From positions 197,962 through 261,961 of the forward strand of contig CAVRYV010000012.1 in the NCBI GenBank assembly GCA_963725555.1: 64,000 bases of DNA, in the 5' to 3' direction. This DNA comes from an uncultured Pseudomonadota bacterium (GTDB lineage Bacteria > Pseudomonadota > Alphaproteobacteria > Rhizobiales > Xanthobacteraceae). Below the pieces are notes generated by a model that searched no databases, had not been told where the DNA came from, and saw nothing but the letters and a program-made list of their open reading frames with translations. Made by a program: the position numbers and the translations under genes. Shown here piece after piece: positions 8,206 through 52,054 of this stretch (position 1 is its first letter; each line of letters opens with the position of its first letter).

Positions 8206-8652
8206 TTACTTCCGAAGGCGTGCGATAGCGCCGGCAACAATCTGCATCAACACGCCCACGGTCCAGCCCAGCAGAATGATTATTGTCCAGAAAATGTGTA
8301 TCTCCTGGCGCAGCACGATGATTCCGACGGATGAAAAAGCCGACAGCGCCGCAAGAAAGGTGCCGACAGCGCTCAGAAATTCCGCGGAATCGACTTTTGA
8401 GATCGTACCTTCTGCATCATCATGCGGGTGAAACGGGGCTTGCGGCGTGTCGATACCAAGATAAAAGCCGATAACGCCGCCCACCATCATCATCAACAGG
8501 AACCCTTGGGACGTCAGCGCCGGGATACTCGATCCGACGTGGACGCCGACAAACAGGCCGCTTGCCGCGCCGGCCATGGCAAGCCCGATGCGCTCAAGAA
8601 CGTGGGCGAACTTTCTGACGCGTGTTCTCATCGTCTGATTCCACACGATCAA
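8206..8652 (-). CDS. Small multi-pass membrane protein of unknown function
   Basis: Four hydrophobic Gly/Ala-rich helices; host-like codon usage. Confidence 0.75.
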   Translation of the reverse strand: MIVWNQTMRTRVRKFAHVLERIGLAMAGAASGLFVGVHVGSSIPALTSQGFLLMMMVGGVIGFYLGIDTPQAPFHPHDDAEGTISKVDSAEFLSAVGTFLAALSAFSSVGIIVLRQEIHIFWTIIILLGWTVGVLMQIVAGAIARLRK

Positions 8653-8807
8653 CCAAGCAGCGCGTTCTCTCTACCGACTGACGCTCCCGTATTTCTTGAG
8701 CAGATCATTAAACGCCTCCCCCGCCAAGGCGTTCAAGGTGGATCGCGCCCCACCGCCAGCATTCCACGCGCGCGGCGATCTTGAGGGCCCACACGATCCC
8801 GTTGAAT

Positions 8808-9485
8808 TCAGCCGCCCGCGCAGTAGGTGCAGCCGCCTTCCTGCGCGCGGTTCACCCCCCATGTTCCGGATGGAATGACGGTGACGCCGGGGACTACATT
8901 TTCGGCCCATTCCTTGGCGGCTTCGTCGGCGCTCACGCCGGCATTGCCGGCAAGCATCTTGCTCTGCACCCGCAGCGCGACGCCGCACGCACCGATCACG
9001 GTGCCGTTCGCGAGCAACCGGTCGAGCGCCATATCGTCGACCAAAAGCACGCCAGGCTTCGGATGCAGGAACGGATTCTTGACCGCCGGCTCCTTGGTTT
9101 CGGGATCGATGATCTTGAGCAACTCCCCGATTTTGTATTTTCGCCACATCTCGTCGCCGAGCGCGATCGGGAACGCACCGTGGCGCAGCACAACGACCGC
9201 CGTCGCGGCAGACGAGCCCGCGCTCGGCGGTTCATGCGTCGCCAGGAACGTGTACGCGAACGCAAGCGGGAAGCCGGCGTTGGCATCGTAGGCGTCCACC
9301 ACCTGGCGATGACGTCCCTTCAGCGCTCCCGGCCAGTCCGGAGTGTCGGATGGCGCTGTCGCAGCCTGCGCGCGCACCGTCGTCATCGCGGACCCCGCGA
9401 GCCCGAGTACCATCGCGCCGGCGAAGCGGCCGAAGAAACCTCGGCGGGGGATCATGTCGGTCATGTCATGGGTAAGATCTGTCAT
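8808..9485 (-). CDS. Tat-exported DsrE-like protein with C-terminal CxxC
   Basis: GGAGGA RBS; RRGFFGRF twin-Arg signal; VVVLRHGA, IGACGVAL, VIPSG, RAQEGGCTYCAGG. Confidence 0.7.
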   Translation of the reverse strand: MTDLTHDMTDMIPRRGFFGRFAGAMVLGLAGSAMTTVRAQAATAPSDTPDWPGALKGRHRQVVDAYDANAGFPLAFAYTFLATHEPPSAGSSAATAVVVLRHGAFPIALGDEMWRKYKIGELLKIIDPETKEPAVKNPFLHPKPGVLLVDDMALDRLLANGTVIGACGVALRVQSKMLAGNAGVSADEAAKEWAENVVPGVTVIPSGTWGVNRAQEGGCTYCAGG

Positions 9486-48176: not shown

Positions 48177-49835
48177 TCAAGCCGCGACATTGCTCAGGAA
48201 ATGATCGATCGACGAGCGCAGGACCGCAGCCTGACTCGATAGTCCCTGCGCCGTGGTGAGCACCAGATCTGCCGAGCGGTTGGTATTTTCGGTCGATGCG
48301 GCTGTTCCTGCAATGCGCTCCGCGACACTTGCTGTTCCATTTGCAGCCCGACGAATATTTTCCGATATTTCGATCGCCGCCATGTTCTGCTGCCTCATGG
48401 CCTGCGCGATCGTCGCGGTAAAGCTGTCGATATCCGCCATCACGACGGTGATCGCGCCGACATTGTCCACAGCCCGTTTTGTCGCCACCTGCACTTCGGC
48501 GATCTGGGACGAGATTTCCTCGGTGGCCTTCGCGGTCTGGGTCGCGAGCGCCTTCACTTCTGATGCGACCACCGCGAAGCCGCGGCCGGCTTCTCCGGCA
48601 CGGGCCGCTTCGATGGTGGCATTGAGGGCCAGCAGGTTGGTCTGACCGGCGATGTTTCGGATAAATCCAACAACCTCGTCAATACGCTGGGCGGCACTGG
48701 CGAGGACTCCGATCGTCTCGTTTGCTTCACTGGCCATGACCGAGGCGCGCTGGACAACGCCGGTGGCGTCGTTGAGTTGCGCCGTGATGGTCTGCACCAA
48801 TTCTCCAAGCTGGTCGGCGGCAGCCGCGACGGTCCGTACGTTGGTGGATGTCTCGCCGGCGGTAGATGCCATCTCGGTCGACTGTTGACCGGCGGCGTAG
48901 GCGATCGATGACAGGGTTTGCGCCGTCTCGGTCAATTTGGCCGTCATGGCATCGGTATTGGTGAGCGCGGACGCGATGGCGGAACGGAAGACCTCGACTT
49001 CGGCTTCGATGCTCTGCCGTCGAGTGATCTGTTCCAGGTTCATCCGGTCCTTCGAGGACATCAGCGCGATGTCCTCGTCCGCGCGAACCTTCAGATTGTC
49101 CTGCATGACGGCAAGCGATTTCAGAAGCCGGCCGAGTTCATCGCGCCGGCGAACCACGATCTGGTCGGTGAAGATACCCGCAGCCACGCGCTCGGCGATC
49201 CGCATCGCGGCGAAGATCGGCTTGCTCATCGAATAAGCAAAAGCGACAGCAAGTATCAGACCAACCAATGCCGTCCCGATCGCCAGCACGAGCATAGTGC
49301 TACGCGCCTCTGCGACGGCAGCCTCCGCTTCCGTTCGGTAGTTGAAGCCATAAGCGGCAACCATCTCCACAAGATCATCAAGCGCGGCGACAGCCTCATC
49401 GCCGGCTTTTACCAGCGAGAAGGCCGCGGGAAGTTCAGTCAGTCCGCCGGCCCGCGGCTTGAGAAACTTCAATTCGGCTTCCGACCACTGGCGAAGACGG
49501 CCTTCCGCACGATCCAGCGCGGCAGCGACATCCTGGCTGACGACACGCTCACGCACGATTTTCAAATCGTCCGCGGCGCCCGCGATCAGCTTTTCGAATT
49601 TGACGGCGGTTTCCTTCGACCCATCCTCACCTTGGCTGCCTTGCACCAGGAGGCGGGCCTCGTTCAGGGCGGCATGCGCTGAACGTGCGAAGTTGATGCC
49701 CATCAACGGACCATCGTAAAGTCGCACAACGAGGTCGCCCGACGTGGAGATACCGCGAATGCCGAAAAATGCGAGCGCGCAGGCCAGGCTGATGACAATG
49801 CAGACAATCCCGAAAAGCTTGTAGCGAATCGACAT
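48177..49835 (-). CDS. Methyl-accepting chemotaxis protein
   Basis: TM - four-helix sensor - TM - HAMP; [34 protein letters not shown]. Confidence 0.93.
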
Positions 49836-49862
49836 CAACAATCTCCGGCAGGCACCCAAAAA

Positions 49863-50183
49863 TTATTCGGTAACTTTCACCATGATCTTCATCCGCGGAT
49901 GGATGGCGCAAATGACCAGTACATCGCCCGCCTCCTTGAAGGTCACGTCCGTCGATGCTCCGGGTGGCTGTGACCCCAGGTTGAACTCATTGCCTTTGCT
50001 GGTCGACAGGATGTTGTGGGGAACACTGTCGTCGTTCAGAAAAGTCAGCGTGTCGCCCTTCTTGATGGCGACGCTCTCGGATGAGAACATGCGACCCTTC
50101 TGGCTGATCGTCATGTTGGCCGCCAAAGCGCCAACCGACAGACCGACGAGAACGACCGGAATGAGTGGAACCAGCTTGCGCAT
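49863..50183 (-). CDS. Cupredoxin (plastocyanin/amicyanin-like blue copper protein)
   Basis: Signal peptide; PHN ... CAIHPRM type-1 Cu ligands H/C/H/M; AAGGA RBS. Confidence 0.85.
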   Translation of the reverse strand: MRKLVPLIPVVLVGLSVGALAANMTISQKGRMFSSESVAIKKGDTLTFLNDDSVPHNILSTSKGNEFNLGSQPPGASTDVTFKEAGDVLVICAIHPRMKIMVKVTE

Positions 50184-50212
50184 CGGATATTCCTTGGGCT
50201 TGTGCTGAGGGT

Positions 50213-51292
50213 TCAACGAGGCAAAACCGGTACGGCGGTCGGATCGAGATTGCTTGTCAGTGTCTTCAGAAAGGCAACCAGGTCGGATTTATCCTGGGAG
50301 GAGAGACCGAGCGGCTTCATCAGGTCGGAGCGGCTTTGCCGCTCAACGCCGCCTTCGTCATAATGTTCGACCACCTGCTCGAGCGTGGCGATGGACCCGT
50401 CGTGCATGTAGGGACTTCGCCGGGTGATTTCGCGCAGGCCCGGCGTCTTGAACGCGTGCTGCATTTTGAGAACCTCAGGCAGAAACTTGCCGCGCCCGAC
50501 ATCGTTGCTCGGCAGCCCGATGTCCTGAAAGCCGTCATTGGTGAAGTTCCAGCCTTCATGACATGCTGAGCATTGGCCCTTGGTGTTGAAGACGACAAAG
50601 CCGCGTTTGGCTTCCTCCGAGATCGCCTGCTCGTTGCCGTCGATCCAGTCGTCGAAAGGCGCGCGCGCGGAAACCACTGTGCGCTCAAAGGTCGCGATGG
50701 CCTTCGCGAGGGTCTTGGGGCTGATGCTTTCGTCGGGAAAGGCCGTTGCGAACAGCGGCTTGTATTCGGCAATGGTTGCGAGCCGGCCCATGAGTTGCTC
50801 GATTGGCATGTTCATTTCCCCGGGGGACTGGATCGGACCGAGCGCCTGGTCCTCGAGGGTGGCAAGCCGGCCGTCCCACATGAAAACCGCGCCCCATGCG
50901 GCATTGATGATGGTCGGCGAGTGGCGGCCGAGCTTGGCCATGCCGTGACCGACGCCGACCGACAATCCATCGGCCCAGCCAAAACCCGGATTATGGCAGC
51001 TTGCGCAGGATTGCGCCGAGGTTACCGAGACACGCGTGTCAAAATAGAGCTTCTTGCCCAGCGCCATTTTTTGCGGCGTGTAGGGGTTATCCGCAGGAAA
51101 AGGAATCGATGCGGGTCGCCGGTATTGCGCCTTCATCGCATCGACGCTGGATGGCGCCTTCTGGTCGAGGGCGATACGCCGCGTTGCTCCGACAACGACC
51201 GAGCCAAGGCTTGTGCTTGCAAGGCCGAACATGCCGAGAGTGGTCGCTGCGACGGCCGTTCCAAGTAGAAGCGTTCGACCAAAGTGACGCAT
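50213..51292 (-). CDS. Di-heme cytochrome c peroxidase / MauG superfamily protein
   Basis: LGKKLYFD, CASCH, FMWDGR, CSACH, FKTPGLR, PYMHDGS. Confidence 0.9.
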   Translation of the reverse strand: MRHFGRTLLLGTAVAATTLGMFGLASTSLGSVVVGATRRIALDQKAPSSVDAMKAQYRRPASIPFPADNPYTPQKMALGKKLYFDTRVSVTSAQSCASCHNPGFGWADGLSVGVGHGMAKLGRHSPTIINAAWGAVFMWDGRLATLEDQALGPIQSPGEMNMPIEQLMGRLATIAEYKPLFATAFPDESISPKTLAKAIATFERTVVSARAPFDDWIDGNEQAISEEAKRGFVVFNTKGQCSACHEGWNFTNDGFQDIGLPSNDVGRGKFLPEVLKMQHAFKTPGLREITRRSPYMHDGSIATLEQVVEHYDEGGVERQSRSDLMKPLGLSSQDKSDLVAFLKTLTSNLDPTAVPVLPR

Positions 51293-51321
51293 GTTCGTCC
51301 TTTGCTGCCCGATTTTGTCGT

Positions 51322-51564
51322 TCAAGCGCGCGACCCGGTGTGGTGAGCGGCGGGAGCCGCGCCAATGCGATATCGCGCGATTTCCCAGTGCTGACGGGGT
51401 TCCTTGCGCCGGTCGATCAGCCCGGCGTTCGCCAGCCGAGCGAGCGCAGTCCTTGTTGAAATGAAGGCGCCCTCATCGATGATCGCGAAGATCTCGCGCG
51501 CAGTACGCCATTCGCCGTTGACCGCGGCCAGTGCCTTGTCTTCGATCGAGGGTAATTTCGTCAT
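51322..51564 (-). CDS. Small hypothetical protein (winged-helix-like)
   Basis: WRTAREIF...STRTALARLANAGLIDRR; co-oriented just upstream of the peroxidase. Confidence 0.5.
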   Translation of the reverse strand: MTKLPSIEDKALAAVNGEWRTAREIFAIIDEGAFISTRTALARLANAGLIDRRKEPRQHWEIARYRIGAAPAAHHTGSRA

Positions 51565-52054
51565 CCCACTGAACTCTTGCTAACGGAAGCGCACTCGTAT
51601 CTGAGGAACGTTTTATCCGGCCAGCCGCGTTCGTCTCAGCGGCGTCTGATTGAGGCCGACAAGTTGGACGACAGCGGTTGAGTACTATTGGCGCCTTAGC
51701 CGGGCTGCACGAGATCACGCGAGACGCATTTGTCACTGCGTCGTATTCTTCTTCCGCGCCGGCGCCGTTAGAAATCAGCTCCGCAGTCACCCGATAAAGA
51801 CCAACTCGCGAATCTTGCAATCATGCTCCATCGATGTGAACTTTGGTAGAGGCACGAAGTAAATATTAGTTATACGAAGTGCGTCGTAAATTCGGGATGC
51901 GTCGAGCCCGGTGTCATGCTCGACTTCTGTTTCAATACTCAAAACATGCTTCTGTAGTTTCATAATAAGGATGCGGGATCCCGCGCCGGTTGGCCTCGAA
52001 GCGCGGCGAAGGGCACGCCGCTGGCAAAAAAATAATTTCATATAGTAAATTCGA

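Follow-up and report, generated by a model that had tools for sequence, protein, structure and literature searches.

The locus described here lies on the minus strand of a 64,000-nucleotide stretch of contig CAVRYV010000012.1 (assembly GCA_963725555.1) from an uncultured alphaproteobacterium of the Xanthobacteraceae; this whole stretch is called the window. The ORF list and a reading of the sequence place four co-oriented open reading frames (ORFs) at positions 48177-51564. Three of them encode a MauG-like di-haem enzyme of 359 residues with a Sec signal peptide (50213..51292; ATG at 51292, stop at 50213), a MauL-like type-1 (blue) copper protein, hereafter the cupredoxin, of 106 residues with a signal peptide (49863..50183; ATG at 50183, stop at 49863), and a methyl-accepting chemotaxis protein (MCP) of 552 residues (48177..49835; ATG at 49835, stop at 48177). 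The fourth, an ORF of 80 residues, precedes the enzyme gene. The gaps are 29 nt between this ORF and the enzyme gene, 29 nt between the enzyme and cupredoxin genes, and 27 nt between the cupredoxin and MCP genes, and purine-rich motifs resembling ribosome-binding sites (AAAGGA, AAGGAA and GGAGA) stand before the starts of the enzyme, the cupredoxin and the MCP, respectively. Both features agree with the first-pass annotation of this DNA, which had described co-oriented genes with gaps of 27-29 bp and their own ribosome-binding sites. An alternative start upstream, a TTG at 51325, would give an enzyme of 370 residues. No terminator-like sites were found between the three genes on the coding strand, and an Rfam scan of the region gave no match. 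The enzyme, the cupredoxin and the MCP constitute one conserved periplasmic unit that is probably co-transcribed. The source genome is 5.48 Mb in size and 99% complete, which is the basis for the genome-wide absences stated below.

The enzyme matches the Pfam family CCP_MauG with 179.5 bits and also Cytochrom_C. Its two CxxCH haem motifs are C96-H100 (50993-51007) and C241-H245 (50558-50572). Trp139 in the motif MWDGR is conserved and placed between the haems, and Trp248, three residues past the second haem His, is conserved among the homologues. The description as a di-haem protein of the cytochrome c peroxidase (CcP)/MauG kind, with two CxxCH motifs and a WDGR Trp, was thus already correct in the first-pass annotation. 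Tyr311 (50360-50362, motif 'VEHYD') aligns with the Met in 'vkiMg' of Geobacter MacA, which, by our own counting with a chain offset, we take to be the ligand of the high-potential haem. A Tyr occupies the position of the Met ligand in all homologues where the motif could be located (85 of 85). Tyr at this haem-ligand site is the hallmark that sets MauG, BthA and their relatives apart from the peroxidases (PMC6405878). The alignment accordingly predicts that the window enzyme does not have the His/Met-ligated high-potential haem of a CcP, Tyr being at the Met position. The distal-His position is occupied by His116 in the window enzyme and by Asn, Val, Thr or Ala in its close and distant orthologues.

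Among the NCBIfam models, TIGR03791 (TTQ_mauG) ranks first with 363 bits, under its cut-off of 443.85, and TIGR04039 (MbnH) ranks second with 220 bits, under its cut-off of 362.85. The solved structures are ranked otherwise by sequence, with Geobacter MacA (191 bits) ahead of MbnH (6e1c, 149 bits) and Paracoccus MauG (about 60 bits). In a maximum-likelihood tree with a planctomycete outgroup, the MauGs linked to methylamine dehydrogenase (MADH), supported at 100/99, are nested in a clade of 39 rows with a support of 100/100. Inside this clade the tree does not resolve the backbone, from which about ten lineages radiate; most of these are linked to a cupredoxin, to a sensor or to both. A sister relation of the MADH-linked and sensor-linked lineages, seen in a quick tree, was dropped because the careful tree leaves this backbone without resolution, and for the MADH-linked MauGs and the window enzyme only the common clade membership indicated by the sequences is claimed. 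As far as its sequence tells, the enzyme is not an ordinary CcP, since Tyr is predicted in place of the Met ligand and the enzyme clusters with genuine MauG. Other domain combinations are found among the cluster representatives, in which a MauG-like domain is fused to a mono-haem cytochrome c (P0256) or to a ChuX/HutX haem-utilisation domain (P0277), or two such domains are joined with a carbon-nitrogen hydrolase in a protein of 1192 residues (P0244).

Genuine mau clusters were used as the reference for the enzyme-cupredoxin pair. Of 401 genomes sampled from the order, 22 have the MADH light chain, and the seven from the window's genus are not among them. Neither mauA (PF02975) nor an MbnP-like gene (TIGR04052) is present in the source genome; the first-pass annotation had noted the lack of a mau or mbnP-type substrate gene, and the lack now extends genome-wide. 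One cluster of the sample (L105) was verified gene by gene and contains MauB (637 bits), MauD, MauA (395 bits), MauG, a gene for 110 residues, MauM and MauN. Its MauG scores 530.6 bits on TIGR03791, above the cut-off, and has 53% identity to the window enzyme. The 110-residue gene (8538-8870), located between MauG and MauM, is the best match to the window cupredoxin in a mau cluster (40% identity over 68 residues, E 1e-11), and its product has the copper site AHN...CWIHPIIRM. The gene order of L105 is that of mauFBEDACJGLMN in Methylobacterium extorquens AM1, so the 110-residue gene stands at the mauL position; the MauL assignment is made by position and similarity in a verified cluster and not by a curated MauL model. 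The same MauG-MauL pair occurs in two further clusters (L128 and L129). Judged from these comparisons, the window pair is homologous to MauG/MauL without being orthologous to the maturase for tryptophan tryptophylquinone (TTQ), and this correspondence to mauG-mauL goes beyond the first-pass annotation. In two Rhizobiales genomes a di-haem gene is located about 3 kb downstream of mauA (L143, G402 C1:300484-301338; L135, G531 C1:561781-562632), and these genes are of the canonical Met type, with 'VRIMAK' and a GHG distal His, not of the Tyr type. A TIGR03791 match at E<=1e-20 is lacking in a dozen further genomes with MADH; MauG in those genomes is either very divergent or replaced.

The cupredoxin matches the Pfam family Copper-bind (PF00127) with 34.4 bits, over the cut-off of 21.2, and does not reach that of the amicyanin equivalog TIGR02657 (28.8 against 110.2 bits). 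The type-1 Cu ligands His56, Cys92, His95 and Met98 are invariant in an alignment of 14 homologues, and the copper loop, C-x2-H-x2-M, is of the short amicyanin type. An AlphaFold (AF2) model of the protein has eight strands with a predicted local distance difference test score (pLDDT) of 87, and a Foldseek search with this model gave amicyanin at a template modelling (TM) score of 0.72 and a root-mean-square deviation of 1.6-1.7 Å. These results bear out the first-pass assignment as a type-1 Cu cupredoxin. The cupredoxin gene adjoins the enzyme gene in 46 of 46 Bradyrhizobium-like loci. The cupredoxin is fused C-terminally to the enzyme in four cases (L115, L121, P0268 and P0272) and N-terminally in one (P0259), while a mono-haem cytochrome c replaces it in other relatives. 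Such a pattern of adjacency and fusion is as expected of a dedicated electron-transfer partner. The cupredoxin had also been considered in the first-pass annotation as a target of Trp modification, and this idea was rejected. The mature protein, of about 84 residues, is without Trp or Tyr and so offers no MauG-style substrate; its four copper ligands are kept, leaving the site intact; and it is a homologue of MauL that occurs in fusions with either end of the enzyme. Beside the pair, a second cupredoxin of 166-199 residues, plastocyanin/pseudoazurin-like and with the motif 'YxYHCxPHxxxxM', is encoded in three loci (L050:1977-2576, L049:4403-4903 and L109).

The MCP consists of a first transmembrane segment (residues 7-26), a periplasmic four-helix-bundle (4HB) sensor, a second transmembrane segment (residues 179-204), a HAMP domain and a signalling domain, with Pfam matches to MCPsignal (92 bits) and HAMP (32 bits). 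The sensor domain comprises residues 27-180 (49296..49757, minus strand). The family 4HB_MCP_1 (PF12729) gives 19.2 bits on the MCP, under its cut-off of 27. The AF2 model of the sensor nevertheless has four helices (pLDDT 84, predicted TM score 0.79), and its nearest folds are the 4HB chemoreceptor and kinase sensors Vc1313, Adeh_2942 and Tar (TM scores 0.66-0.69, with weak E-values); ligand-bound 4HB structures are among these fold relatives. An MCP with a periplasmic helical sensor, as read in the first pass, is therefore what the gene encodes. The sensor domain is single-copy in the source genome. Beside MauG-like genes at other loci, this sensor family is also present on a histidine kinase and on GGDEF-EAL proteins. 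It carries the motifs YDxPLxxINFxRxA (with Tyr40 and Asn48), DLxVxxER (with Arg97) and YGF, and the enzyme-linked sensors have YDxPLxSINFxRxA, DLxVAxER and DG(Y/F) in common. Tyr40 is invariant and Trp117 often conserved in the sensor alignments.

The link between the pair and the receptor is conserved. About 45 Bradyrhizobium loci contain the trio, in surroundings that differ, and the three genes are the only ones conserved over the 46 Bradyrhizobium-like loci. Cultured strains among the matches are Bradyrhizobium jicamae PAC68 and B. lablabi CCBAU 23086. The MCP gene lies 3' of the cupredoxin gene wherever the contig reaches far enough, with the exceptions of one locus without it (L047) and one with a partial match (L048). 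When 100 genomes of the genus were sampled, a cupredoxin orthologue (at least 57% identity) and a sensor orthologue were found in the same 20 genomes, always a few hundred bases apart, and the remaining 80 had neither. Beyond the genus, a metagenome-assembled genome (MAG) of the Kordiimonadaceae (L050) has the trio, and in a Sphingomonadales MAG (L049) the enzyme and cupredoxin genes lie beside a different, dCache-type MCP. An even, class-wide sample of 401 alphaproteobacterial genomes contained 20 others with an enzyme homologue, at 21 non-self loci. A periplasmic-sensing transducer is encoded within about 2.5 kb at 12 of the 21; nine of these transducers are chemoreceptors, one is a 4HB-HAMP histidine kinase (L116), and two are 4HB-HAMP-PAS-GGDEF-EAL proteins (L114 and L123). 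In one metagenomic cluster representative a 4HB MCP gene is transcribed divergently from the MauG-like gene, and in another the partners are a HAMP histidine kinase with a sensor of the same family and an HD-GYP response regulator. The genes stay side by side although their order, their orientation and the output domain of the transducer change, as is characteristic of functional coupling and not of a frozen operon. The first-pass annotation had staked its proposal on a conserved MCP linkage and on an enzyme other than an ordinary CcP; the linkage holds in Bradyrhizobium, in other families and in metagenomes, and the enzyme differs from an ordinary CcP in the sequence features given above.

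Some of these loci hold additional genes. In one subclade the MauG-like gene, the cupredoxin gene and the 4HB-GGDEF-EAL or histidine-kinase gene are accompanied by a conserved membrane protein of 325-344 residues without a Pfam match (L114:8470-9504, L116:1713-2738 and L123:11-988). This protein may be a further partner. Its predicted mature N-terminus is 'HVKWF', and the N-terminal His suggests metal binding. Large Bradyrhizobium genomes encode a second cupredoxin, 43-49% identical. In one genome (G856 C1:1436803-1438005) this gene is located beside a divergent 990-residue ORF with the same sensor family, which is probably a GGDEF-EAL variant of the module, and in another (G805 C1:7639044-7646532) a 1027-residue ORF of that sensor family is located about 7 kb from the second cupredoxin gene.

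The 80-residue ORF (51322..51564, minus strand) stands outside the conserved module. The first-pass annotation had taken it for a small winged-helix-turn-helix-like member of the operon, which did not survive the searches: the ORF matches no Pfam or NCBIfam family, 40 related genomes contain no homologue of it, and it is absent beside the trio at all other loci. It was accordingly rejected as an operon member or regulator and is unrelated to the unit. A comparison of the upstream regions of the Bradyrhizobium loci gave no common regulatory box, only lineage-specific palindromes. Farther upstream in the window, a gene-poor stretch of 490 bp (51565-52054), with a G+C content of about 0.57 against 0.62-0.65 around it, parts the orphan ORF from a dihydrodipicolinate-synthase-like gene. 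This low-G+C stretch, together with the varying flanks at the other loci and the presence in about 20% of the genus, suggests that the trio moves as a cassette.

The closest known counterpart of the enzyme-cupredoxin pair is MauG-MauL of mau clusters such as that of M. extorquens AM1. The two pairs have in common the predicted Tyr ligand, the inter-haem Trp, a small cupredoxin gene directly next to the enzyme gene, and membership in one 100/100 clade. They differ in that the source genome is without mauA, mauB, mauD, mauE, mauM and mauN, that the window enzyme remains below the TIGR03791 cut-off (363 against 444 bits), that the window cupredoxin has the shorter loop C-x2-H-x2-M, and that the constant neighbour is a chemoreceptor or another sensor, not a dehydrogenase. 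Both mauG and mauL mutants reportedly make MADH protein without a functional cofactor. MauG is the textbook case of long-range protein oxidation and is, to our knowledge, known only as the maturase of one dehydrogenase; we know of no function assigned to MauL since the 1990s. A second comparison is with CcPs that have cupredoxin donors, namely Paracoccus CcP with pseudoazurin and Geobacter MacA. The window enzyme shares the fold and the two haem motifs with them, and its similarity to solved structures is highest here; in contrast, it is predicted to have Tyr for the Met of the high-potential haem, and the distal His is not conserved among its orthologues. Pseudoazurin is the electron donor of Paracoccus CcP, and by this likeness a blue-copper donor is plausible for the window enzyme. 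We are aware of no link between di-haem CcPs and receptors. MbnH-MbnP provides another MauG-like di-haem enzyme with an adjacent periplasmic partner outside methylamine metabolism, MbnH modifying a Trp of its copper-binding partner MbnP. However, the window enzyme is under the TIGR04039 cut-off, and the source genome has no MbnP-like gene.

Two kinds of known system share the concept. In TorT-TorS the helical sensor in the periplasm takes its input from a separate protein of the same compartment, and in Desulfovibrio DcrA and Geobacter GSU0582 and GSU0935 a c-type haem senses redox state or gas on the periplasmic side of an MCP. The haem protein at the present locus differs in being a separate catalytic enzyme with a copper partner of its own, in a system known so far from its genes. 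The nearest precedent is in Campylobacter jejuni, where docA, encoding a CcP homologue, is immediately upstream of docB, encoding the MCP Tlp10; docA has no role in H2O2 resistance but matters for chick colonisation (PMC3156733). A periplasmic CcP-family gene directly upstream of a chemoreceptor gene is thus common to both, while C. jejuni belongs to another phylum, no cupredoxin is reported there, and the likeness is one of gene arrangement. The study of BthA maps the CCP_MauG superfamily and makes no mention of cupredoxin or chemoreceptor contexts (PMC6405878). A full-text literature search for combinations of peroxidase, cupredoxin and chemoreceptor found no description, and one on the cupredoxin nature of MauL gave no usable result. 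The enzyme is therefore of a known kind in a context for which no published description was found. New here are the homology to MauG and MauL, the Tyr at the ligand position, the lack of known substrates across the genome, the co-inheritance test and the cupredoxin fusions.

The source genome encodes neither MADH nor MbnP, and the only constant third partner of the pair is a transducer with a periplasmic helical sensor; on these grounds we propose an accessory input module, in which the enzyme and the cupredoxin would sense peroxide or redox state and feed the receptor. We put this forward tentatively, with somewhat less than even confidence. The enzyme would be of the MauG type, with one haem open for peroxide, the other ligated by His and Tyr, and a Trp between them. 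In enzymes of this chemistry, H2O2 supplies two oxidising equivalents, which are kept in a high-valent state of the bis-Fe(IV) type and are discharged to a protein partner by long-range electron transfer. The blue-copper protein would be the dedicated electron-transfer partner of the enzyme, the counterpart of MauL. The state of the enzyme may shift with peroxide or with the redox balance that the cupredoxin sets in the periplasm; the 4HB sensor may read this state by docking or by transient oxidation; and the readout would bias CheA signalling and steer swimming relative to oxidant or redox gradients. We infer that peroxide is the stimulus, that the sensor is contacted and which way the electrons flow, just as we infer a physical relay from conserved neighbours. 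The first-pass proposal of an undescribed periplasmic redox relay feeding chemotaxis accordingly stands as a genomic association, while the relay itself is conjectural.

Several observations weigh against the proposed module, and they bear on the rival explanations as well. The sensor motifs are equally kept in family members from genomes without the enzyme, as found in a profile search, and an alignment of linked and unlinked homologues revealed no residue specific to the enzyme-linked sensors, so no modification or docking site is marked in the sensor. The linked sensors are mostly 4HB, but sCache_2 occurs in L117 and dCache_1 in L049, which limits the specificity of a model with docking or oxidation. 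Nine of the 21 loci in the class-wide sample are without a nearby transducer. Moreover, the window enzyme is the sole PF03150 (CCP_MauG) gene of its genome and may simply be a periplasmic peroxidase. In that case the cupredoxin would donate electrons to a di-haem peroxidase for ordinary peroxide removal, and the MCP would merely be co-expressed, owing to a need for peroxide protection in the niche or to regulatory economy, with no direct signalling link. The best matches to solved structures by sequence, which are CcPs, and the fusions to cupredoxin or cytochrome c, which resemble the donor domains of tri-haem peroxidases, point the same way as the sole gene. We nonetheless consider this explanation unlikely, given that the change of ligand from Met to Tyr holds throughout the clade, that the pair is strictly co-inherited with one single-copy sensor, and that juxtaposition with transducers of differing outputs and orientations has arisen repeatedly and independently. 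DocA, likewise a CcP homologue encoded upstream of an MCP gene, docB, has no part in H2O2 resistance (PMC3156733).

The enzyme could instead mature the receptor. Aided by the cupredoxin, it would permanently modify the periplasmic sensor domain, and the product, a hydroxylated or cross-linked aromatic, a quinone-like or a metal-binding site, would become the ligand-binding or redox-sensing site of the receptor. The substrate protein is encoded beside the enzyme in both characterised relatives, MauG and MbnH, and the transducer is the only constant neighbour with a periplasmic domain; the genuine MauG/MauL in the same 100/100 clade, the absence of the known substrates from the genome and the two aromatic residues of the sensor, invariant Tyr40 and frequently conserved Trp117, are in line with such a role. 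Tyr40 and the other motifs, however, look structural, given their equal conservation in genomes without the enzyme, and the sensor has no conserved Trp or Cys pair as TTQ and cysteine tryptophylquinone need. The unrelated Cache folds among the linked sensors, and one subclade without the cupredoxin, also speak against maturation, which we judge to be improbable to about the same degree as peroxide removal. The variety of sensor folds (4HB, sCache_2 and dCache_1) beside one enzyme family would most easily fit a shared small ligand, and small molecules are the usual ligands of 4HB and Cache domains. The pair might then oxidise a diffusible periplasmic compound, such as a phenolic, a derivative of an amine or a metal ion in reduced form, and the receptor would bind the substrate or the product, with sensing and turnover encoded together. 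Yet the trio has neither a transporter gene nor a catabolic gene as a conserved companion, action on small molecules is not known for any member of the MauG branch, and the data yield no candidate compound; we hold a small-molecule link to be very unlikely.

A bolder form, in which the receptor is itself the protein substrate of the MauG-type enzyme and not a sensor of a free ligand, is doubtful in our estimate. Peroxide would load the enzyme with two oxidising equivalents, and long-range electron transfer would pass these into the sensor, either reversibly, in a redox relay, or once, with formation of a cofactor; the cupredoxin would reset or assist this step. If this were true, it would amount to a haem-peroxidase-based redox relay into chemotaxis, two-component and cyclic di-GMP (c-di-GMP) signalling, and would provide the first assigned function for MauL.

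For the family, the MADH-linked MauG and MauL represent one lineage of a larger clade, most other lineages of which are without the dehydrogenase and are encoded beside periplasmic-sensing transducers. Together with the tight, co-inherited unit in the window, this points to a so far undescribed route by which oxidants or redox state are sensed in bacterial signalling. Should the coupling be functional, it would be a new kind of periplasmic oxidant or redox input into bacterial behaviour, could explain the old docA-docB puzzle of Campylobacter, and may be relevant to soil- and root-associated Bradyrhizobium facing the peroxide bursts of plants.

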